Positions 1,050 through 47,459 of a stretch of DNA of 50,126 bases are shown here, in pieces (within the stretch, counting starts at the first letter, position 1; every line of letters begins with the position of its first letter). A program made the translations under genes and the position numbers. The DNA comes from a phage. Where the stretch lies: sequence record PZ445405.1; one strand, given 5' to 3'. Under the pieces are notes generated by a model, which did not search any database, was not told the origin of the DNA, and saw only the letters and a list, made by a program, of their open reading frames with translations.

Positions 1050-2312
1050 ATGGTAAAAACAGACAGCTACGCCAATATCTTTCTCGGCGGCAGTGATGGC
1101 AGTGAGATTTACGGGAGCTTACAGAATCAGGAACCTACTATTCTGGCTTCGCTTTATGCGGATAATGCCCTGGTGCGTCGAATTATTGACACAATCCCGG
1201 AAACAGCATTAGCGGCAGGATTCAACATTGATGGTGTTGATGATGAATCTGCATTCTGGTCGCGCTGGGATGATTTGGAGATGACGCAGAATATTAACGA
1301 CGCTTGGTCATGGGCAAGGTTATTCGGTGGAGCAGCAATTGTCGCTATCGTTAAGGACAATAGAGCGCTAACAAGTCCGGTCAGAGAAGGCGCCGAGCTT
1401 GAAACGGTTCGCGTTTACGACCGCACACAGGTAAAAGTACAAACCCGCGAGGAAAATCCAAGAAACTCGCGATTTGGTAAGCCCCTAACCTATCGCATCA
1501 CCACTAATGAGAGCGATATGTTCTTCGATGTGCACTACAGCCGTATTCACGTCATTGACGGAGAGCGAGTCCCTAACGTAATGCGCAGGCAGAATGATGG
1601 CTGGGGCCGCAGCGTTCTATCTAGTGACATTCTTGACTCGATTAAGGATTACACCAACTGTGAACGACTTGCCACGCAATTACTGAAGCGTAAGCAGCAA
1701 GCGGTGTGGAAAGCAAAAGGTCTGGCTGAGTTATGTGATGATAGCGAAGGATTCGGCGCGGCAAGATTAAGGCTTGCACAGGTAGATAATAACAGTGGCG
1801 TTGGTCAGGCGATTGGCATTGACGCGGAATCGGAAGAGTACAGCGTACTCAACTCTGATATTGGCGGGATTGATGCATTCCTGGATAAGAAGTTCGACAG
1901 AATCGTTGCGCTGAGCGGCATCCATGAAATCATCCTGAAGAACAAGAACGTTGGCGGCGTGTCATCAAGCCAGAATACGGCACTGGAGACATTCCATAAG
2001 CTAGTTGACCGCAAGCGTAATGCTGAGCTACTTCCTATTCTTGAGTTCTTAATCCCGTTCATCGTTAACGTATCGGAATGGTCAGTTGAGTTTAACGCCC
2101 TCGCTCAGGAGTCCAGCAAGGATAAAGCCGAGATTCTTGAGAAGAACGTAAACAGTATCGCAGCACTAATTGCAGCTGGAGCTATGGATACTAACGAAGC
2201 CCGTGATACACTACGAACTATCGCGCCAGAGATTAAGATTGGTGAAGGTGATATTGAGGTTGAAGAACCAACTCAGGAAGTAATCGCGCAGACAGAGGAA
2301 CCTAATGAATGA
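1050..2312 (+). CDS. Portal protein (putative)
   Basis: 420-aa ORF following terminase (wrap-around) and preceding protease/scaffold; acidic C-terminus; start at ATG 1050 with GGAG SD rather than the ATG inside the terminator hairpin. Confidence 0.6.
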   Translation: MVKTDSYANIFLGGSDGSEIYGSLQNQEPTILASLYADNALVRRIIDTIPETALAAGFNIDGVDDESAFWSRWDDLEMTQNINDAWSWARLFGGAAIVAIVKDNRALTSPVREGAELETVRVYDRTQVKVQTREENPRNSRFGKPLTYRITTNESDMFFDVHYSRIHVIDGERVPNVMRRQNDGWGRSVLSSDILDSIKDYTNCERLATQLLKRKQQAVWKAKGLAELCDDSEGFGAARLRLAQVDNNSGVGQAIGIDAESEEYSVLNSDIGGIDAFLDKKFDRIVALSGIHEIILKNKNVGGVSSSQNTALETFHKLVDRKRNAELLPILEFLIPFIVNVSEWSVEFNALAQESSKDKAEILEKNVNSIAALIAAGAMDTNEARDTLRTIAPEIKIGEGDIEVEEPTQEVIAQTEEPNE

Positions 2313-2345
2313 TGAATTTGATGGCTTTTAGTGAGGAGAATTGGG

Positions 2346-3437
2346 ATGTCTAAAATCCGCTATGACAGCGCAAAGGTGAAAGCCCGATTTGATGAAAACG
2401 GTTTTCTGGTTGATACCCCGATTGTTGCTCGCGTCGGGGTGCAAACATACTACCTTCCGGACGGTACAGAACGCAGAGAATTTAGACCAGCCTCAGAGGT
2501 CTTTAAATCTGATTCTCTGGCTAGTTATCAGGGTAAGCCAATTACCTTAGGTCATGTGTTTGTTAACGCAGACAATGCTAAAGAGGTTGTTGTGGGTGCA
2601 GTATCTGGCTCAGCAATGCGCGAAGATTCAAGCGTGATTGTTCCGCTAACCATTTACGATAAGGAGTCAATCGAGAAGGCCAGAAATGGGATCGCTGGTG
2701 AGTTGTCGGTTGGGTACCACACTGTTGATGTTGAGTCCAAAGGCTGGGGTAGCAACGAAACCGGTGAATATAAGCTGGATGGAGAGTATGGCTCACAAGA
2801 TGAGATTCCTTCTGACTGGGTTAGATTTGATGCTCTACAAACCGAAATCAAGGTAAACCACGTCGCTCTTGTTTATAAAGGTCGCGCCGGTGTGGCCAAA
2901 CTTAACTTTGACGCTCATCAGGAAAACCCGTATACTACTGACGTTGATATCAATAAAGAGGATAAACAGGAAATGACAGTTAAAATTAAACTCGACGGCG
3001 CGCAGGAATTTGAAGTCGCACCGGAAATCGCTTCTCACATCGAAGCACTGAACGCAAAGGCTGACACCGCAATCGCTGAACGCGACGCACTGAAAGCTAA
3101 AGTAGATGCAATTCCATCTGAAATCGAAGCTGCCGTTGCCAAAGCGAAAGCTGATGCTGATGCCCTGGCCGCTCTGGTTGCTGTTGCTGCTGAAGCTGGT
3201 GTTAAGGCTGACGGTCTGGATGCTAAAGGCATTAAAGTGGCTTACGTTAAAGAAGTCTCCGGACTTGATGTTTCCGAGAAATCCGACGCGTACATCGACG
3301 CGGCGTTCGACATTGCCAAAGAATCTGATAAAATGGCTGAAGTACGTAAAGCGACTACCGCTTCCGACAAATCTGACAGCGCCGATGAGCCTAAGAAATT
3401 AGACCCGCGTGCTCGTTTAGCTAAAATTAAGAAATAA
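2346..3437 (+). CDS. Prohead protease / scaffold-like protein with Ala-rich coiled-coil C-terminal region
   Basis: Position after portal; C-terminal half AERDALKAKVDAIPSEIEAAVAKAKADADALAAL typical of scaffold domains; SD GAGGAG upstream of ATG 2346. Confidence 0.5.
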   Translation: MSKIRYDSAKVKARFDENGFLVDTPIVARVGVQTYYLPDGTERREFRPASEVFKSDSLASYQGKPITLGHVFVNADNAKEVVVGAVSGSAMREDSSVIVPLTIYDKESIEKARNGIAGELSVGYHTVDVESKGWGSNETGEYKLDGEYGSQDEIPSDWVRFDALQTEIKVNHVALVYKGRAGVAKLNFDAHQENPYTTDVDINKEDKQEMTVKIKLDGAQEFEVAPEIASHIEALNAKADTAIAERDALKAKVDAIPSEIEAAVAKAKADADALAALVAVAAEAGVKADGLDAKGIKVAYVKEVSGLDVSEKSDAYIDAAFDIAKESDKMAEVRKATTASDKSDSADEPKKLDPRARLAKIKK

Positions 3438-3449
3438 GGAGTTATAAAC

Positions 3450-3956
3450 ATGGCAATTCGTTCCGTAGCACTGGCTGGTATGGTTTCTGATACCTCTCTG
3501 TACAACATCGACGGCGCTTGTGTAGTTGGTGGCATTGCTGCAATTCCAGTTGGCACTGCAGTTCGCGTAACAACAGCTCAGCCTATTGATGGGCACAAGG
3601 TTGTAGTTAACACTGGCATCTCAGCAGATGAAACACCGTATGGTGTTGTAATTCGCTCCCATTATGAAACTCCTGATGGAACCGCTAAGGCACAGGAAGC
3701 AGTTAACGTAATGACTCATGGCCGAGTGTGGATGCGCGCAGCGAGCAACGTAACCGCTGAGTCTGTAAAGGTTGGTGCGGCTGTTAGTATTAGCGCATCT
3801 GGTCTCGTTGATACTGGCGGCGTTGGCAAGCCTAACTGGACTTACGCAGGTGGTTTTATTTCTAATGCCGTAACCAACCCTCAAGCCAATGACTTCGATC
3901 AGCAGGATACTAGCGTTGATGGCGCCCTGGTTGAAGTGCAGATTCGTCAGGCATAA
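3450..3956 (+). CDS. Head decoration / accessory structural protein (putative)
   Basis: 168-aa Gly/Val/Ala-rich ORF between scaffold and capsid genes, followed by a strong terminator. Confidence 0.4.
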   Translation: MAIRSVALAGMVSDTSLYNIDGACVVGGIAAIPVGTAVRVTTAQPIDGHKVVVNTGISADETPYGVVIRSHYETPDGTAKAQEAVNVMTHGRVWMRAASNVTAESVKVGAAVSISASGLVDTGGVGKPNWTYAGGFISNAVTNPQANDFDQQDTSVDGALVEVQIRQA

Positions 3957-3989
3957 TCAACTGTTGCAGCTTAATAATTAAGATACATA

Positions 3990-17459: not shown

Positions 17460-17509
17460 TTTAGTGTAGAATGGCACAAATGATCAAAACAAACATGAGG
17501 CTTTGTGAT

Positions 17510-20500
17510 ATGGCTGAAGAGATTAAGATTTATGGTGCCAAGGGTGGTAGCCAGAAGCAGCATCAACCAGTAGAGCAGGAAGATAACCTGATTTCGTTAA
17601 ACAAGGTTAAGGTTCTTTTGGCGGTTGCTGACGGAGAGGTGGATCCAAACTTCTCAATGAAGGATTTATACCTTGCTGACGTTCCAGTACAAAATCAGAA
17701 TGGCACCTACAACTATGAAGGAGTTCGAGCTGAGTTCCGCTCTGGTACGCAGTATCAGGATTACATCGCTGGGCTTGACGGTGCTAACTCAGAGATTCAG
17801 GCTTCACGTGAAATCACGAACGACACCCCGTACATTATTGCGGTTAACAATACTCAGCTATCAGCAATTAGAGTTAAGCTATTTTGGCCTCGGCTGGTTA
17901 AGCAAGAAAGCAACGGAGACCTGAACGGAACTACTTGCGAGTACGCAATTGACCTTTCTGTTAATGGTGGCGCTTATCAGGAATACACTCGCGGAGTTGC
18001 AAACGGGAAGACAACTACGGGTTACGACCGCAGTATTCGTGTAAACCTTCCAGCTGAATTTGATAGCGCACTGGTTCGAATTCGCAAGATTACAGCAGAT
18101 TCAACAAGTAGCACGCTGGTTAATGGAATGCAGATTACAACCTATCAGGAAGTAATTGACGCTAAATTCCGCTACCCGCTTACTGCTCTGGTTTATGTTG
18201 AGTTCGGATCTGACCTGTTCCCTAACGGCATCCCGACAATCTCTATAAAGAAGCGCTGGAAGTTGATTCAAGTCCCGACAAACTACGACCCGGAGACCAG
18301 GACTTACAGCGGCACATGGAATGGCCTGTTCAAAATGGCGTGGTCAAACAACCCGGCCTGGGTTCTCTATGACTTAGTGACAAATCGCCGCTACGGCCTT
18401 GACCAGCGAGAGTTGGGTGTAGAGATTGATAAGTGGGGGCTATATGAAGCTGCGCAATTCTGTGACCAGATGGTGCCGGATGGTAAGGGTGGTATGGAGC
18501 CGCGCTACCTGTGCGATATGGTTGTGCAGAATAAAGTTGAGGCCTACACGCTAATTCGTGACATCTGCTCAATCTTCCGTGGACTGACTTTCTATGATGG
18601 CGAAAAGATTGGTATCGTGGTTGATAAGCCTCGAAATACATCTTACATCTTCACGAATGATAACGTTGTAAACGGATTATTCAGCCGAACTTTTGCCAGT
18701 GATAAGAGCCTTTACACTACGGCAAACGTTCAGTTCGATGATGTGGAAAACAACTATCAGCAAGATGTAGAGCCGGTATTCGAGTTGGAGGCTACTCGCA
18801 GATTTGGATTCAATCCAGTCGACCTTACGGCAATCGGATGTACGCGAAGAAGTGAAGCAAACAGGCGCGGCAGATGGCTCCTGAAAACCAACCTGAGAAG
18901 CGAAACTATCAGCTTCACTACCGGGTTGGAAGGCATGATTCCGATGATTGGCGAGGTGATTGCGGTTAATGATGCCGCATGGTCTAGCAACTATCAGCTG
19001 AACCTTTCCGGTCGTATTGAGTCAGTTCAGGGATTGCAGGTTTTTACACCGTTCAAAGTTGACGCTGCGCCGGGCGACAGAATTCTTCTAAACAAGCCTG
19101 ACGGAAGCCCAGAGGCAAGAACTATTGCCAGCGTTTCGGAAGATGGTAGAACAATCAACCTTAACACTGCTTTCAGCTTTGTGGCTCAACCTGATACTGT
19201 TTTTGCAATTGATAAGGACAATCTAGCGCTTCAGCAATATGTTGTGACAGGGATTCAAAAAGCAGACTCTGACGGTTCGGATTCTTTCCAGTATACGATT
19301 ACCGCAGTAGAGTATGACCCGAACAAGTACGACGAGATTGACTACGGCGTTAACATTGCTGACCGTCCAACTTCAATTGTTGAACCTGACAGATTGTCGC
19401 CGCCTGAGAATTTAACAGTATCAAGCTACAGCAAGATTGTTCAGGGCTTATCAGTTGAGACGATGGTTATCGGATGGGATAAGGCGCCATACGCTAAAAC
19501 TTACAACGTTCAATGGAGGAAAGAAAATGGCAACTGGATTAACGTACCCAGAACAGCAAGCACAGAGGTTGATATCGAGGGTATTTACGCAGGAATCTAC
19601 GACGTTAGGATTCGCAGCGTATCAGATACTGAAAACGTGTCCGCCTGGTCTGGCATTGTAACCAAAAGCCTCACCGGAAAGATTGGTAAGCCACCAAAGC
19701 TGCAGGTTATAACGGCGAGTGATGATGAGGTTTTCGGAATTCGAGTTAAATGGGGGTTTGCTGACGGATCTGGTGATACTGCTTACACTGAGCTTCAGCA
19801 AGTGGCTGATAATGGTGATGGTACATACAACCCAGACAGTGCTAGCCTGTTAACTTTGGTCCCATATCCTCAGTATGAATACTGGCACACGCCGATTCAA
19901 CCCGGCAATGTTATATGGTATCGCGCAAGGATTATAGATAGGATTGGTAATACATCTGATTGGACGGACTTCGTCAGAGGGATGAGTACTGATGACGCTC
20001 AGAAGATCGCTGAATATATCAAGGTTGATATCGAGCAGTCTGAAGGATTTAAATACCTACAGCAGAATGCAATTGATAAAAACCAAGACATTCAGAATCA
20101 AGCTGAGGCAATAATCGAGAACGCACTAGCAAATGACTCAGATGTAAGGCGCCAGTCTGTTAAGAATGGGAAATTTACAGCTTCAATAACCGAAAGTCTT
20201 CAGTTGATTGCTGACGAGCAGCAAGCCAGGGTAACTCAGATATCTCAGCTTGAGGCGGATTTTGACGGAAGGGTTAATTCTTTAAACACTGAACTAAGAG
20301 AGGTAATAACAACTGGTGATAGCGCTCTATCAAGATCAATTGATGATTTAAGGGTTGAGATTGACGAGAACATATCATCACAAATAACAAACATAAACAC
20401 GGCTTTAGTAACAGAAGCAGAAGCAAGAGCCACGGCTGACACAGCTTTGTCTGCAAGGCTTGGTCAGAACGAGGCGGCACTAAACCAGAAGCTGGATGCT

Positions 20501-20980
20501 TTCTCTAATGCCACATCAACTGGCGTACAGTACGGAATTAGTCTTGGCCTGAAATACAACGGGCAGACTTATTCATCCGGTATGAGCATGGAGCTCGTTG
20601 GCACTGGTGGCAATGTTCGCAGTCAATTCATTTTTGACGCAAACAGATTCGCAATCAGTAACGGAATTGGTTCTGGTTCCGGTCAGTGGCAACTCCCCTT
20701 TGTTGTTGAGAATGGAAACGTAATCATCCAAAGCGCAGTAATCGGTGATGGATCAATCAGTAACGCGAAGATTGGTAACTTCATTCAGTCCAATAACTAC
20801 GTGGCAGGAAGCAGAGGTTGGAGGATTGATAAGAGTGGTAATGCTGAGATCCGAGGAAAACTTTACGCCAACAGTGGTGAGTTCGCTTTTAACGGAACAA
20901 ACAATACGGTACAGATTAACGGGAACGGAATTACGGTAAACTTACCTGGAGGTGGTAGGGTTGTTGTAGGCACGTTTTAA
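17510..20980 (+). CDS. Central tail fibre / host-specificity protein (lambda gpJ-like)
   Basis: Extensive collinear similarity to lambda J (VPTNYDPETRTYSGTWNG.., GCTRRSEANRRGRWLLKT); start at ATG 17510 with GAGG SD. Confidence 0.9.
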   Translation: MAEEIKIYGAKGGSQKQHQPVEQEDNLISLNKVKVLLAVADGEVDPNFSMKDLYLADVPVQNQNGTYNYEGVRAEFRSGTQYQDYIAGLDGANSEIQASREITNDTPYIIAVNNTQLSAIRVKLFWPRLVKQESNGDLNGTTCEYAIDLSVNGGAYQEYTRGVANGKTTTGYDRSIRVNLPAEFDSALVRIRKITADSTSSTLVNGMQITTYQEVIDAKFRYPLTALVYVEFGSDLFPNGIPTISIKKRWKLIQVPTNYDPETRTYSGTWNGLFKMAWSNNPAWVLYDLVTNRRYGLDQRELGVEIDKWGLYEAAQFCDQMVPDGKGGMEPRYLCDMVVQNKVEAYTLIRDICSIFRGLTFYDGEKIGIVVDKPRNTSYIFTNDNVVNGLFSRTFASDKSLYTTANVQFDDVENNYQQDVEPVFELEATRRFGFNPVDLTAIGCTRRSEANRRGRWLLKTNLRSETISFTTGLEGMIPMIGEVIAVNDAAWSSNYQLNLSGRIESVQGLQVFTPFKVDAAPGDRILLNKPDGSPEARTIASVSEDGRTINLNTAFSFVAQPDTVFAIDKDNLALQQYVVTGIQKADSDGSDSFQYTITAVEYDPNKYDEIDYGVNIADRPTSIVEPDRLSPPENLTVSSYSKIVQGLSVETMVIGWDKAPYAKTYNVQWRKENGNWINVPRTASTEVDIEGIYAGIYDVRIRSVSDTENVSAWSGIVTKSLTGKIGKPPKLQVITASDDEVFGIRVKWGFADGSGDTAYTELQQVADNGDGTYNPDSASLLTLVPYPQYEYWHTPIQPGNVIWYRARIIDRIGNTSDWTDFVRGMSTDDAQKIAEYIKVDIEQSEGFKYLQQNAIDKNQDIQNQAEAIIENALANDSDVRRQSVKNGKFTASITESLQLIADEQQARVTQISQLEADFDGRVNSLNTELREVITTGDSALSRSIDDLRVEIDENISSQITNINTALVTEAEARATADTALSARLGQNEAALNQKLDAFSNATSTGVQYGISLGLKYNGQTYSSGMSMELVGTGGNVRSQFIFDANRFAISNGIGSGSGQWQLPFVVENGNVIIQSAVIGDGSISNAKIGNFIQSNNYVAGSRGWRIDKSGNAEIRGKLYANSGEFAFNGTNNTVQINGNGITVNLPGGGRVVVGTF

Positions 20981-21010
20981 AACAAAAGCCCCGAAAGGGG
21001 CTTTATCTTT
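20977..21010. terminator. Bidirectional terminator between convergent J (+) and the 311-aa gene (-)
   Basis: AGCCCC-gaaa-GGGGCT flanked by an A-run upstream and T-rich sequence downstream. Confidence 0.6.
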
Positions 21011-21944
21011 AATACATATCAGGAAGGTAAGGAAGAGGAATGCCAAGTGTAACGTCTGGCCTATTTCCAATTTCATATCTAACTATCCTTGTGCCCGTGC
21101 CGCTCCTTACATTACCACCAGACATTACCACACCTTTGTTTCTTAGCTCCTTGTATGCAGGTATTGCTCTTGTGTTAAACCCACACCTAAGTATTGGAAA
21201 GTATGAGTTTCCTATACTCTGGTTTGAGCTCGTCAAGGTCCTGAACCCAGAAACAACAAGAGGCCTTGTTAATGTTGAAAAAGTACACTGATTGTTAGAG
21301 TTGAATATGTTTATGCCAGGCCCTGGGGTTGGAGCAACCTGCTGAAATATTATTAGATCAAGAGTTACGCTACCAGGGGTATCTCCAGTATCTTCTGTAT
21401 TTATATTCGTGCAATATAGAGTTCTGTCACCATCAAACTCAACTGAGACACCTGAGTTATTCCACTTCCCAAAAGGTATTCCAGCTATTGGCATTGTATA
21501 GCTGTTTGTGAATGATACGGTTGCTGAAAATTTGCAAGTAAGAAGCCTATCCCTTGTTGTTATAGAGGCGAAATCAGTACTATCAGCAACGTATATACCT
21601 TGCCCAGTTGACGCTCTCAATACTTCCACTACAGTTCCAGAGAACTGCGTAATACGGTCATTATAAGCATTCTCCCCACCAATAGTTATCGTCCCCTGAG
21701 TATTGGTTGCTGAAAATCCATTTATATAATAAATCTCAACCCCCCTATCAAGTTCAAAGCTATAGGCACCATTTCTTGGTAGTAAGAATTTTGATGAGCC
21801 ATCGCTACCAGTTATTGGGAATGTCTTTGTAAATCCTCCGCTAGAAACGTTGAAGTTACCAGCAAAAGACAACCCCCTCATCCCTGAGGTTATCATCATT
21901 GGGTTTCTACCATCATTCAGATCTATATATATACCTTGGGCCAT
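21009..21944 (-). CDS. Hypothetical 311-aa Gly/Ser/Thr/Asn-rich protein; candidate receptor-binding or tail accessory protein
   Basis: ATG overlaps the TAA of the upstream lipoprotein gene (TAATG); SD AAGGAG; location just downstream of J. Confidence 0.5.
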   Translation of the reverse strand: MAQGIYIDLNDGRNPMMITSGMRGLSFAGNFNVSSGGFTKTFPITGSDGSSKFLLPRNGAYSFELDRGVEIYYINGFSATNTQGTITIGGENAYNDRITQFSGTVVEVLRASTGQGIYVADSTDFASITTRDRLLTCKFSATVSFTNSYTMPIAGIPFGKWNNSGVSVEFDGDRTLYCTNINTEDTGDTPGSVTLDLIIFQQVAPTPGPGINIFNSNNQCTFSTLTRPLVVSGFRTLTSSNQSIGNSYFPILRCGFNTRAIPAYKELRNKGVVMSGGNVRSGTGTRIVRYEIGNRPDVTLGIPLPYLPDMY

Positions 21945-22174
21945 TAATTCCACTCCTTAGAGCCATGATCACGAACAGATCCGCTAGAGCCTTTAATTCC
22001 ATCGTAACGAACATCAACCTCGCCAGCCGGAACAACTACACCACCCTTCCATTTAGCTACGCATACGCCGTTAGCTTGAGTTGCACACCAACCATCCGGG
22101 CGAGGACCCGATGAACAACCTACTGTCATGATTACTACTGCGGCGATGATTGCTGATTTGATTAAGTTAGTCAT
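21944..22174 (-). CDS. Small lipoprotein (76 aa); candidate superinfection-exclusion lipoprotein (Llp/Cor-like role)
   Basis: Signal peptide ending in the lipobox-compatible MTVGC; cassette-driven; translationally coupled to the 311-aa ORF. Confidence 0.5.
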
Positions 22175-22258
22175 TTTGTATTCCTTAGTAAGTTCGTTTC
22201 GTTTCGATGGAGTAATAGTATCGCATCCTTGCGATCAGTGTTTAGCAATTCGTGCTAT
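22175..22258 (-). promoter_or_regulatory. Canonical promoter cassette on the minus strand (box at 22241-22258)
   Basis: Reverse complement reads ATAGCACGAATTGCTAAA, 22 bp, TACTAT, CATCGAAACGAAACG; the box also encodes the C-terminus (NSTNC) and stop of the upstream gene. Confidence 0.55.
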
Positions 22259-22931
22259 TCGCCAAGAATACAGCTCTTGCAAATCCACGAGGTGTAAGGC
22301 TGCGAATTACCTTTGTCTTCTTGCTCTTGCCGCCAAGTTTCTTGTATTGGTCAGAGAAACCACCATCAACCTCCACAGGAATCGCCTCAGGCCATCTAAA
22401 CCCATTACCAGACCAAATACATGTCTTTTTAGGGTATGCATCTCTTGGCTTTATTAGGTCTCTAAAAAACGGGTGTAAATCATCTTCCGGCAAATATCCA
22501 CCGTACTCATATGGATGGAAAGTGTTATCAGGTTTTCGCCAAAGTGATGAAAGTACGCTGATTGGGTTTTCAATCATGTATGGCACCTCGTACTTTTCAG
22601 CCAGGTTGAAAGCAAACTTGCAAGTCTCTGCCGCCTCAATTTGAAAATTAGGATTGGCAAGACGCTTACGCTCGAAGTGTCTTGAGCCGCTCACCGCTAA
22701 ATCCGTACAAGGCGGGAATGCTAAAATGAAATCAGGCTTCACATCGAAATCGAAGTCAGCATCTATCCAGGTGTTAACGTAGGTAATATTCTCATGCTCA
22801 ACTTTTGCGTTTAAGTCACCGTAGCTCCCGTGGTCTGACTCATCAAAGTTGAAGCAGTAGCAAGTGTGACCAGCTTCAGCCCAATCTTTTACCGCCAGAC
22901 CAGAACCATCAAATAAAGACCAGATAACCAT
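22242..22931 (-). CDS. Short DNA C5-cytosine methyltransferase-like protein (229 aa)
   Basis: Motif I-like LFDGSG, catalytic motif IV-like FPPC, motif VI-like ENPIS; too short for a canonical C5-methyltransferase. Confidence 0.4.
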   Translation of the reverse strand: MVIWSLFDGSGLAVKDWAEAGHTCYCFNFDESDHGSYGDLNAKVEHENITYVNTWIDADFDFDVKPDFILAFPPCTDLAVSGSRHFERKRLANPNFQIEAAETCKFAFNLAEKYEVPYMIENPISVLSSLWRKPDNTFHPYEYGGYLPEDDLHPFFRDLIKPRDAYPKKTCIWSGNGFRWPEAIPVEVDGGFSDQYKKLGGKSKKTKVIRSLTPRGFARAVFLANSTNC

Positions 22932-23003
22932 ATTAAAACCCCTCTCGTTAAAGTGCGGCGATTATACCGCGCAAAATTTATTGTTCTTTGGCAATTCGTG
23001 CCA
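22932..23003 (-). promoter_or_regulatory. Promoter cassette variant on the minus strand (box TGGCAcgaatTGCCA, 22 bp, TATAAT, leader AACGAGAGGGG)
   Basis: Perfect palindrome variant of the box; -10 TATAAT (rc of 22961-22966); upstream stop codon abuts the box. Confidence 0.55.
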
Positions 23004-23005
23004 TA

Positions 23006-23212
23006 TCAGATTTTAAATTCTTCATAGTTGTTGTTGATAATCAGGCAGTGATAACGGATCAATTCAATGCGTCTCTCTCCGTGATTTAAAGCATTCTCGG
23101 CGCATCTTTCCTGATACTCAGCCCAAGCCTTATCTCGGTCTATTGTTGGCTCCGTGGCGATTCTGAGGCCCTTTGGTGTGGTGATTACTACCTGATAGAG
23201 TAAGTTGCTCAT
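23006..23212 (-). CDS. Hypothetical protein (68 aa)
   Basis: ORF in a minus-strand operon downstream of the Rha-like gene. Confidence 0.4.
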   Translation of the reverse strand: MSNLLYQVVITTPKGLRIATEPTIDRDKAWAEYQERCAENALNHGERRIELIRYHCLIINNNYEEFKI

Positions 23213-23223
23213 TTCATATCTCC

Positions 23224-23493
23224 TTAATGGATATTTTCGCAGCCAGGTAGGGACTTAACATTGTAATGTCGATAAGCGAATATCAAGTTAAGGGCTTGCT
23301 CGCCTGTGCACTTAAGAGCGCCAGAGATAATCAGTGAAGACTCAGCAATGTGATTCATTAACTCATTTCTGACAGGGTCGTCATCTGCCATTAACTCTGC
23401 GTGCTTAACAAAAAGAGCGTTGTTTACCAGGATGGTCACAACCTTTTCATTGAGTTCTTTCTTCGCTTTCGCAATCTCTTTCTCGTAGTTCAT
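23224..23493 (-). CDS. Hypothetical protein (89 aa)
   Basis: ORF in the minus-strand operon; nearly abuts the upstream gene. Confidence 0.4.
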   Translation of the reverse strand: MNYEKEIAKAKKELNEKVVTILVNNALFVKHAELMADDDPVRNELMNHIAESSLIISGALKCTGEQALNLIFAYRHYNVKSLPGCENIH

Positions 23494-23494
23494 C

Positions 23495-24136
23495 TTATAC
23501 CACCTTATTTTCGATTTGCATTACGTTATTAACTGCCAGCATAACATTTCGATTCTGCTGCTGCGTTGTAACTACAAAAGACTCCATCTTAATCCGATCT
23601 AAATCTTTTTCCGCACCCTCTCGGGTTAATTGCATTACCCGGTCATGGTTATATTTTTCCAATTCCGTCAACCCCACCTTATCTTCAAGCTTCCAGCAGT
23701 ACACCTGCATTTCACTATATATTTTAGAGTTTACAGCCATTTGGCCTTGCATGCTATGAATGTGGTTATCTTTCTCTTTAATGATTTTCTCGTAATGTGC
23801 CACGATGTTTAGATTTCCAACAGCTTCGATCTTTGACTCAAGTTCATGAAGCCTTCGGATTACTTTATGGCGAAGTGCGACGCTGTATCCGGTGATTAGC
23901 GTTTCGGTAAGTTCCTTGTTAAGCAAAATCTCTGATGTATAGCCACGAACGTCAGTAAGTACTTGATAATCATCATGACTCAAATCTGAGTCATCGTTAT
24001 AATGTAACAATTCATCGATCATTTCTTGAGCGTCCCTCACGACGTTGCCATGTCGCTTTCCGGTTAATTCGGCAACTTCCTTTGTGCTCATCATTGCTTT
24101 TGGTTGTTCTTTGTACACTTTAATATTCATTTTCAT
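23495..24136 (-). CDS. Rha-family phage regulatory protein (putative)
   Basis: N-terminal motif STKEVAELTGKRHGNVVRD typical of the Rha domain; start ambiguous (24136, 24130 or 24172). Confidence 0.55.
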   Translation of the reverse strand: MKMNIKVYKEQPKAMMSTKEVAELTGKRHGNVVRDAQEMIDELLHYNDDSDLSHDDYQVLTDVRGYTSEILLNKELTETLITGYSVALRHKVIRRLHELESKIEAVGNLNIVAHYEKIIKEKDNHIHSMQGQMAVNSKIYSEMQVYCWKLEDKVGLTELEKYNHDRVMQLTREGAEKDLDRIKMESFVVTTQQQNRNVMLAVNNVMQIENKVV

Positions 24137-24172
24137 CTCTCTTCTGTTTTTCATGACCCAAATCTGGATCAT

Positions 24173-47381: not shown

Positions 47382-47459
47382 GCTCTGCTAGCTCAATTGG
47401 ACAGCAGCAACGACCTTCTAAGTCGTAGGTTACTGGTTCGAATCCAGTGCGGAGCGCCA
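47382..47459 (+). tRNA. tRNA-Arg (anticodon TCT)
   Basis: Cloverleaf readable by eye: acceptor GCTCTGC/GCGGAGC (one G-U pair), anticodon stem ACGAC/GTCGT with loop CTTCTAA, T-arm ACTGG-TTCGAAT-CCAGT, encoded CCA; D-stem has one mismatch. Confidence 0.7.

Follow-up and report, generated by a model that had tools for sequence, protein, structure and literature searches.

Coliphage Rtp (Rtpvirus, Braunvirinae) encodes two proteins, Rtp44 and Rtp45, whose role in receptor binding and superinfection exclusion was proposed in 2006 and in 2021 (PMC8594841), and was structurally shown in 2025 (PMC12685063). Cryo-EM analysis placed the lipoprotein Rtp45 on the periplasmic face of the lipopolysaccharide (LPS) translocon LptDE (PDB ID: 9RPS; Dunbar et al. 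2025, PNAS, PMC12685063 / 10.1101/2025.07.07.663478), and phage Oekolampad's receptor-binding protein (RBP) on the extracellular face of the same complex (PDB ID: 9RPT; Dunbar et al. 2025, PMC12685063). In the published mechanism, the LptD loop EL4 is sterically displaced from the periplasmic side; the evidence given for exclusion by Rtp45 is the structure of the complex (Dunbar et al. 2025, PMC12685063). Expression of Rtp44 did not succeed in that study, and the RBP structure is therefore that of a 36%-identical homolog (RBP_Oeko), with AlphaFold3 models of Rtp44 and RBP_Oeko agreeing at a root mean square deviation of 1.1 Å (Dunbar et al. 2025, PMC12685063). Dependence on LptD has been demonstrated for phages Bas01 (AugustePiccard), Bas02 (JeanPiccard), and Bas18 (Oekolampad) (Maffei et al. 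2021, PMC8594841; 10.64898/2026.04.02.716166). Deletions in LptD loops (ΔY658-Y678 and ΔL394-V396) block Bas01, Bas02, and phage OzMSK.

The DNA analyzed here (the window) is the whole 50,126-nt stretch of record PZ445405.1, and belongs to an Rtp-like coliphage of the Braunvirinae (Drexlerviridae). The features of the locus are as follows.

17471..20980, plus strand: J-like central tail fiber/tip attachment protein, 1169 aa (PF24801, PF13550, PF09327, phrog_31)
20985..21004, both strands: intrinsic terminator hairpin, bidirectional, in the gap that separates the converging J and RBP genes (stem and T runs)
21009..21944, minus strand: gene for the 311-aa RBP, Rtp44 ortholog and predicted LptD-specific tail-tip RBP (ATG start; DUF6453, PF20051)
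21942..21958, minus strand: translational-coupling junction read from the sequence, with Shine-Dalgarno (SD) AAGGAG at 21958-21953 and TAATG at 21946-21942
21944..22174, minus strand: gene for the predicted superinfection-exclusion lipoprotein, Rtp45 ortholog, 76-aa precursor and 57-aa mature protein (PF24052)
22115..22174, minus strand: signal peptide (19 residues) and lipobox ending at Cys20 (codon 22117-22115), Ser at +2 (lipobox pattern)
22175..22257, minus strand: promoter-like cassette 5' of the lipoprotein gene, one of 16 co-oriented copies

Both open reading frames named by an earlier, sequence-only reading of this DNA were present, and they lay, as it had described, opposite to the tail operon immediately after J, converging on it across 28 nt that separated them from the J stop codon. 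This gap held the shared terminator hairpin, whose 8-bp stem with five GC pairs and flanking T runs was terminator-like on both strands. The order of the superinfection-exclusion (SE) gene followed by the RBP gene, convergent on J, was common to the window, Rtp, JeanPiccard, and Oekolampad. Directly upstream of the pair, the window and Bas02 carried a gene for a Dcm-like methyltransferase, the stop codon of which was overlapped by the cassette, whereas the pair of Rtp adjoined a divergent intergenic region.

The two genes were joined by the minus-strand sequence CTAAGGAGTGGAATTAATGGCC. Consistent with the overlap proposed earlier, the stop codon TAA of the lipoprotein gene (21946-21944) and the ATG of the RBP gene (21944-21942) had one A in common, and the SD sequence of the RBP gene (21958-21953) was located within the 3' end of the lipoprotein gene. 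The TAATG overlap and the SD sequence were invariant in Rtp and JeanPiccard, such that all three phages exhibited a 1-nt overlap, in contrast to the 2-nt gap of Oekolampad. A GTG start at 21953, which would give a protein of 314 aa, was discarded, as the ATG at 21944 has a properly spaced AAGGAG and fits the N-termini of Rtp44, its Bas02 counterpart, and RBP_Oeko.

We then compared the 311-aa protein with characterized RBPs. It matched DUF6453 with 379 bits (cutoff: 25), residues 4-291 aligning with positions 1-290 of the 291-position profile, and also matched phrog_1265. Its end-to-end identity was 96% to Rtp44 (11 substitutions), 80% to JeanPiccard bas02_0024, and 36% to RBP_Oeko. In a phmmer search, the alignment with chain C of 9RPT (RBP_Oeko) covered residues 1-311 on 1-321 (E-value: 3.6e-44). 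Assignment to the LptD class of RBPs has been based on >30% identity over approximately the full length to RBPs of LptD-dependent phages (10.64898/2026.04.02.716166), and the 311-aa protein exceeded 30% identity to such RBPs from end to end. Gly, Ser, Thr, and Asn together made up 39% of its residues, in agreement with the composition noted from the sequence alone. A single-sequence AlphaFold2 model (mean pLDDT: 30.9; pTM: 0.22) was too poor for a fold search.

The 76-aa lipoprotein matched the Pfam family Phage_lipoprotein (PF24052) with 125 bits (cutoff: 27), and chain D of 9RPS (Rtp45) was recovered over residues 1-76 by phmmer against the PDB (E-value: 3.8e-43). Identity to Rtp45 was 89% for the whole protein and 95% for the mature part; five of the eight substitutions fell in the signal peptide, and the other three (S35N, N44G, and Y70H) were distributed over the 57 mature residues. 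The homologs from JeanPiccard (Bas02) and Oekolampad (SE_Oeko) were 82% and 35% identical, respectively. The signal peptide, with Lys6 in its N-region and a hydrophobic core score of 2.42, ended in IMTVGC as previously read and fitted a PROSITE-type lipobox pattern, the 11-residue match spanning residues 10-20; the Ser at +2 is a non-Asp residue, indicative of outer-membrane sorting. The earlier count of four Cys residues in the mature lipoprotein was in error: the protein contains three in total, i.e., the lipid anchor Cys20 and two further residues, Cys30 and Cys38, and it is the 311-aa protein that contains four (residues 137, 178, 220, and 254). Cys30 and Cys38, which have been described as a disulfide pair in the Rtp45-type lipoprotein (Dunbar et al. 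2025, PMC12685063), were retained together with the motif RPDGWC..GVC..G..VPxGExDxRY in the window, Rtp45, Bas02, SE_Oeko, and phiEco32 gp106. Homologs of both families (PF24052 and DUF6453) are also carried by Kuravirus podoviruses.

Codon changes relative to Rtp were predominantly synonymous in both genes (44 synonymous and 11 non-synonymous for the 311-aa protein; 21 and 8, respectively, for the lipoprotein), indicating purifying selection. A Pfam search of both proteins returned no family besides PF24052 and DUF6453, and among all PDB chains phmmer (E-value ≤1) detected only 9RPS and 9RPT, apart from one spurious match. Judged by sequence, the pair is a near-identical counterpart of the characterized Rtp44/Rtp45 of coliphage Rtp, i.e., a system already known. 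The proposal that the locus encodes an RBP with its cognate exclusion factor is thus supported through published orthologs, and it is very likely that the pair constitutes a host-recognition and exclusion module directed against the essential outer-membrane LPS translocon LptDE; binding and exclusion by exactly these two proteins are predicted from their homologs.

Next, we focused on the J protein, on which the RBP presumably docks. Its C-terminal ~190 residues were nearly identical to those of Rtp43 (the J protein of Rtp) and of Bas02 J and diverged from those of the FhuA-dependent phage T1, classifying this domain as the LptD type. Around residues 890-1000, the protein was unlike both Rtp43 and Bas02 J, and contained a 33-aa T1-like coiled-coil insert. 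This difference leaves some room for LptD being one of two obligatory protein receptors, with a second, NupG-like specificity residing in J: Bas01, a close relative, requires both NupG and LptD, and the NupG-related part is located in the distal domain of its GpJ (10.64898/2026.04.02.716166). The insert, however, resembles an extra copy of a coiled-coil repeat, several of which are present in T1, rather than a new globular domain, and we regard a second receptor as unlikely. Such a receptor would refine the main explanation by LptD rather than contradict it.

The sequence-only reading had instead pointed to FhuA or another TonB-dependent transporter, by analogy with Cor and Llp. The small lipoproteins that adjoin the RBP genes of T5 and T1 do block FhuA, and T1 Cor gave a weak BLASTP match to the lipoprotein of the window (45 residues with 13 gaps; E-value: 7e-4) and a PF24052 score of 17.7 bits, below the 27-bit cutoff. 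This match did not extend beyond the signal peptide and lipobox, and T1 Cor lacked the RPDGWC...GVC...VPxGExDxRY motif of Rtp45-type lipoproteins. T1 ST31 showed no significant similarity to the 311-aa protein in direct comparison (best E-value: 1.3), and ST31 and ST32 had no match to DUF6453 or any other Pfam family. The layouts also differed: in the T1 FhuA locus (ST32 and ST31), the recognition genes run in the same direction as J, with cor alone reversed, whereas both genes in the window are opposite to J. Furthermore, the RBP families for FhuA, BtuB, YncD, and LptD have been described as unrelated, each with one receptor (PMC8594841; 10.64898/2026.04.02.716166), and the PDB matches were those to LptDE complexes described above. 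A module aimed at FhuA or another TonB-dependent transporter is accordingly very unlikely, and this reading was rejected. Assays of FhuA- or TonB-dependence would be negative for the wrong reason, because the predicted receptor is LptDE.

The phrog_1265 label ([quoted passage not shown]), the RefSeq name "membrane protein" for rtp44, and the orientation of the genes opposite to the tail operon might suggest a host-directed, non-virion membrane protein of 311 aa beside an unrelated accessory lipoprotein gene. This reading is the least likely of all and was rejected. The 311-aa protein has no signal peptide, and hydrophobic segments were absent, the highest Kyte-Doolittle score of any 19-aa stretch being 0.87. 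Its full-length homolog in 9RPT was purified in soluble form and solved on LptDE from the cell exterior (PMC12685063). Among small siphophages, this locus and the receptor specificity vary together (PMC8594841; 10.64898/2026.04.02.716166), and the label has apparently been passed on by automatic annotation.

To return to the LptDE-directed module, its lipoprotein gene was preceded by the cassette that had been suggested to drive it, comprising a 17-nt motif, a -10-like box, and a conserved leader before the lipoprotein ATG. On the minus strand, the palindromic motif TAGCACGAATTGCTAAA (22257-22241) was followed by a 20-nt spacer and TACTAT (22220-22215), and the 3' part comprised the conserved leader CATCGAAACGAAACG with the SD sequence AAGGA (22186-22182). 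The 17-nt motif occurred in 16 copies in the window, all co-oriented, against an expectation of ~0.1, and Rtp and JeanPiccard retain the cassette in the corresponding position. A scan for the sigma-70 consensus yielded no convincing promoter for the pair, the number of hits equaling the shuffle expectation, and a literature search for the motif sequence or a known Drexlerviridae promoter motif returned nothing relevant. We infer that the cassette upstream of the lipoprotein gene is a promoter.

Based on these data and the published complexes, we propose the following mechanism. A leftward transcript, probably initiated at the cassette (22257-22215), would encode the lipoprotein first and the RBP second, the latter being translated from its own SD sequence via the overlapping stop and start codons (TAATG). 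The 76-aa prolipoprotein would be exported, lipidated at Cys20, and, given the Ser at +2, delivered to the outer membrane's inner leaflet. As expected of an Rtp45 homolog, it would then bind LptDE from the periplasm, between LptE and LptM, where its β-hairpin would be pushed up the LptD lumen and displace EL4 by up to ~20 Å; phages with such RBPs could then not bind LptD, resulting in superinfection exclusion. Cor and Llp have been described as protecting progeny from binding to debris (BASEL 2025 paper), and by this analogy the lipoprotein may also keep progeny from binding to cell debris. The RBP, which lacks a signal peptide, would remain in the cytoplasm and, at the tail tip, is presumed to assemble non-covalently on the J trimer via the C-terminal domain of J. 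At the next infection, it would insert from the outside into the LptD barrel, with the barrel in the open state, presumably triggering irreversible adsorption and DNA ejection. In this scheme, RBP docking on J, promoter activity, and expression timing are inferred.

The same geometry might have a consequence for the host. A hairpin occupying the LptD lumen, with EL4 displaced, could lock LptDE in a closed state and thereby throttle LPS export in the course of infection, a possibility that we consider rather improbable. If true, with this lipoprotein the phage would encode an inhibitor of an essential machine in the outer membrane, its dose being set by the tight translational coupling to the RBP.

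The analysis has little discovery value for the window itself, the pair being a close ortholog of Rtp44/Rtp45. Its use lies in prediction: the terminal receptor of this phage is predictable as LptDE, which is essential and conserved, and this is relevant to phage steering as well as to T1-like laboratory contaminations that escape fhuA strains. In addition, the "membrane protein/moron" label on DUF6453/phrog_1265 should be replaced.

Finally, we compared the pair with named systems, from the most distant to the closest. T5 pb5 (Oad) and Llp follow a like logic, in which a dedicated tip RBP on the central fiber is combined with a small outer-membrane lipoprotein that faces the periplasm and keeps the RBP from binding by acting on the receptor's opposite side; their receptor is the TonB-dependent transporter FhuA, whereas that predicted for the pair is LptDE. 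No sequence relationship of pb5 or Llp to the pair was found by phmmer against the PDB (E-value ≤1) or by Pfam. The FhuA-pb5 and FhuA-Llp complexes (PMC9586334) were presumably among the PDB chains searched. The modes of exclusion also differ, Llp acting on the FhuA loops by long-range allostery and Rtp45 by physical displacement of LptD EL4 (Dunbar et al. 2025, PMC12685063). Cor of T1, phi80, and N15 is likewise a small exclusion lipoprotein beside a J-distal recognition locus, and in Drexlerviridae genomes it is found in the same slot; by sequence, the pair is a member of neither the Cor nor the Llp family.

Oekolampad (Dhillonvirus; PDB IDs: 9RPT, 9RPW, and 9RQI) encodes proteins of the same two families (DUF6453, 405 bits; PF24052, 76 bits), with gene order and orientation relative to J as in the window and an RBP that aligns over its full length. 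It differs in genus, in the spacing of its SE and RBP genes, and in its divergent lipoprotein, and RBP_Oeko has 13 additional residues inserted as well as two minor differences in loops, which have been suggested to cause slightly different LptD contacts (Dunbar et al. 2025, PMC12685063). Closest are Rtp44/Rtp45 and the orthologs in the BASEL phages Bas01 and Bas02, which belong to both Pfam families, as the pair in the window does; for Rtp44/Rtp45, the protein lengths (311 and 76 aa), the TAATG overlap, the slot and orientation downstream of J, and the cassette are all as in the window.

The two minus-strand genes at 21009-22258, beside the J-like tail gene, very probably form a module for recognition of, and exclusion at, LptDE, the outer-membrane LPS translocon. 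The system, a receptor-binding protein (RBP) paired with superinfection exclusion, is already known. The locus is laid out as follows.

17471..20980, + strand: J-like gene, on which the pair is convergent
20258-20356: 33-residue insertion in J (residues ~930-962), relative to Rtp43 and JeanPiccard J
20985-21004, both strands: bidirectional terminator hairpin, in the 28-nt gap between J and the RBP gene
21009..21944, - strand: 311-aa protein, ATG start
21944..22174, - strand: 76-aa lipoprotein
22257-22241, - strand: cassette of the lipoprotein gene, TAGCACGAATTGCTAAA, followed by a TACTAT box, a conserved leader, and ATG

The sequence-only reading had placed the pair opposite to the tail genes just after J and joined by a TAATG overlap, and both points were borne out. 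At the coding-strand junction, CTAAGGAGTGGAATTAATGGCC, the lipoprotein stop codon TAA overlaps the next ATG by one base, and within the 3' end of the lipoprotein gene lies an AAGGAG properly spaced for that ATG; the two genes are translationally coupled. An alternative GTG start nine bases upstream of this ATG would give a protein of 314 aa. Codon changes relative to phage Rtp were mostly synonymous in both the RBP gene (44 synonymous, 11 non-synonymous) and the lipoprotein gene (21 and 8, respectively), which indicates purifying selection on both.

The 311-aa protein is Gly/Ser/Thr/Asn-rich, as had been noted (39% in total), and matched the Pfam family DUF6453 with 379 bits against a cutoff of 25. 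Its identity was 96% to Rtp44, 80% to bas02_0024 of JeanPiccard (Bas02), and 36% to the RBP of Oekolampad (Bas18). The Oekolampad RBP (9RPT chain C) was its only PDB match (E = 3.6e-44), with residues 1-311 aligned on 1-321. A sequence scan for a signal peptide and a hydrophobic segment found neither. The 'membrane protein' label of the DUF6453 family (RefSeq YP_398988.1, rtp44) was therefore rejected, given this lack of a hydrophobic segment and the solved RBP homologue, with which the phrog_1265 label 'moron, auxiliary metabolic gene and host takeover' also clashes. The public label of the family is likely a propagated mis-annotation.

The start of the lipoprotein conforms to the lipobox pattern (Ser at +2), and the protein matched PF24052 with 125 bits against a cutoff of 27. 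Among all PDB chains, its sole match was Rtp45 (9RPS chain D; E = 3.8e-43), to which it is 89% identical; five of the eight differences fall within the signal peptide, leaving only S35N, N44G, and Y70H in the mature protein. No PDB chain other than those of 9RPS and 9RPT matched either protein at E ≤ 1. The four cysteines earlier assigned to the mature lipoprotein belong instead to the 311-aa protein; the lipoprotein has three in total (20, 30, and 38). Cys30 and Cys38, which form a disulfide in the Rtp45 structure (Dunbar et al., 2025; PMC12685063), and the motif RPDGWC..GVC..G..VPxGExDxRY are kept in homologues as distant as those of Oekolampad and phiEco32.

DNA searches grouped the window with the Rtp-like Braunvirinae (Drexlerviridae); its best overall matches were RobRod40 and Rtp (~88% identity over ~70-75% of the sequence), and the locus itself was 90.7% identical to rtp43-rtp45. 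The order J, rtp44 (minus), rtp45 (minus) is identical in Rtp and the BASEL phage JeanPiccard. The C-terminus of J is of the LptD class, its last ~190 residues being near-identical to those of LptD-class J proteins, and the RBP would dock on J. The window J protein has 1169 aa versus 1136 aa for Rtp43 and JeanPiccard J. Its insertion lies in a coiled-coil region and resembles the repeat ELREVI..ALSR.ID.L, present in several copies in T1 J; the ~100 flanking residues are likewise divergent. The insertion may alter fibre length or confer a second specificity; Bas01 (AugustePiccard) also needs NupG, via a GpJ domain (2026 preprint, 10.64898/2026.04.02.716166).

Published work ties such loci to LptD. 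Maffei et al. (2021; PMC8594841) paired locus variants downstream of gpJ with the terminal receptors of small siphoviruses, noted cognate superinfection-exclusion genes there, mapped spontaneous resistance to Bas01 and Bas02 to lptD, and inferred LptD to be the target of Rtp. The 2026 preprint (10.64898/2026.04.02.716166) confirmed that this locus encodes four RBP families, unrelated to one another and tied to FhuA, BtuB, LptD, and YncD, and the same logic predicted LptD use, subsequently confirmed, in the study of OzMSK, an Rtp-like laboratory contaminant. Dunbar et al. (2025, PNAS) determined structures of LptDE with the Oekolampad RBP, which had entered an open state of the barrel from outside, and of LptDE-LptM with Rtp45, which is bound between LptE and LptM at the periplasmic interface and sends a hairpin up the LptD lumen. 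Loop EL4 is thereby shifted by up to 20 Å, a displacement not compatible with RBP binding. Rtp44 itself was neither expressed nor solved in that study, and we found no in vivo exclusion assay for Rtp45 in the accessible texts. The proposal of an RBP with a cognate exclusion factor is thus supported by near-identity to the characterised Rtp44/Rtp45 pair, with the receptor corrected from an FhuA/TonB type to LptDE, which the window pair would be expected to bind and to protect from superinfection.

The cassette said to drive the lipoprotein gene is real, and probably serves as promoter of the pair. The 17-nt motif occurs in 16 copies versus ~0.1 expected, every one pointing toward a downstream gene.

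Motif starts, + strand: 538, 15666, 25929, 29773, 34270, 44291, 44568, 45442, 45864, 46431
Motif starts, - strand: 22257, 23003, 24275, 31309, 41427, 42691

Each comprises an imperfect palindrome (TAGCACGAATTGCTAAA), a variable 19-22-nt spacer (a GC hairpin plus T run in three copies), a TATAGT/TATAAT-like box, the leader (t)CATCGAAACGAGAGGAG, and ATG; the motif frequently abuts or overlaps the upstream stop codon. About 20-22 nt separate the half-site TTGCTA from the -10-like box downstream, a greater distance than a sigma-70 -35 element would allow; the palindrome centre would fall near -42, the position of class II activator sites. Rtp likewise has 16 matches (up to 3 mismatches), and the 16 kb of T1 that were scanned hold at least one; no description of the motif was found in the searchable literature.

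In the window, four leftward genes (22242-24172, - strand), absent there in Rtp, separate the divergent recombination genes from the lipoprotein gene. The methyltransferase and Rha genes have their own cassette copies (23003 and 24275, respectively).

22242..22931, - strand: Dcm-like C5 methyltransferase (phrog_757; JeanPiccard has one too)
23006..23212 and 23224..23493, - strand: two small ORFs, no family match
23495..24172, - strand: Rha/anti-repressor-like protein (PF09669)

Elsewhere in the window (47382-47459, + strand) lies a single tRNA-Arg with anticodon TCT; for the related phage OzMSK, one Arg tRNA has likewise been reported.

Both families also occur in Kuravirus podoviruses, at 1977-3978 of SU10 (KM044272.1) and 2486-2767 of phiEco32 (EU330206.1). 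In SU10, the 343-aa gp19 (SU10_019) belongs to DUF6453 (83.5 bits); its gene immediately follows that of the tail needle, gp18, a protein with the Phage_Tail_Tip domain found at the siphophage J C-terminus. In phiEco32, the lipoprotein gp106 scored strongly against PF24052 (124 bits; ~43-45% identity) and retains both cysteines. No mention of gp19 is made in the SU10 structure paper, and the searchable literature yielded no Kuravirus-LptD link; as a lead from sequence, an RBP of the LptD type may sit at the Kuravirus needle tip and have an exclusion lipoprotein of its own.

In how it works, the module resembles T5 pb5/Llp and the Cor systems of T1 and phi80, yet it belongs to neither family. 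Dunbar et al. (2025) contrasted the steric mechanism of Rtp45 with the allosteric action of T5 Llp on FhuA. The likeness of T1 Cor to the lipoprotein is confined to the signal peptide, and its PF24052 score was below threshold. The T1 FhuA locus is arranged differently; its protein ST31 proved unrelated when compared directly with the 311-aa protein, and neither ST31 nor ST32 matched any Pfam family. Because the module lies outside the FhuA-type families, the tests first proposed, with FhuA- or TonB-dependent phages, would be uninformative; the informative reagents are lptD loop mutants and LptD-class phages.
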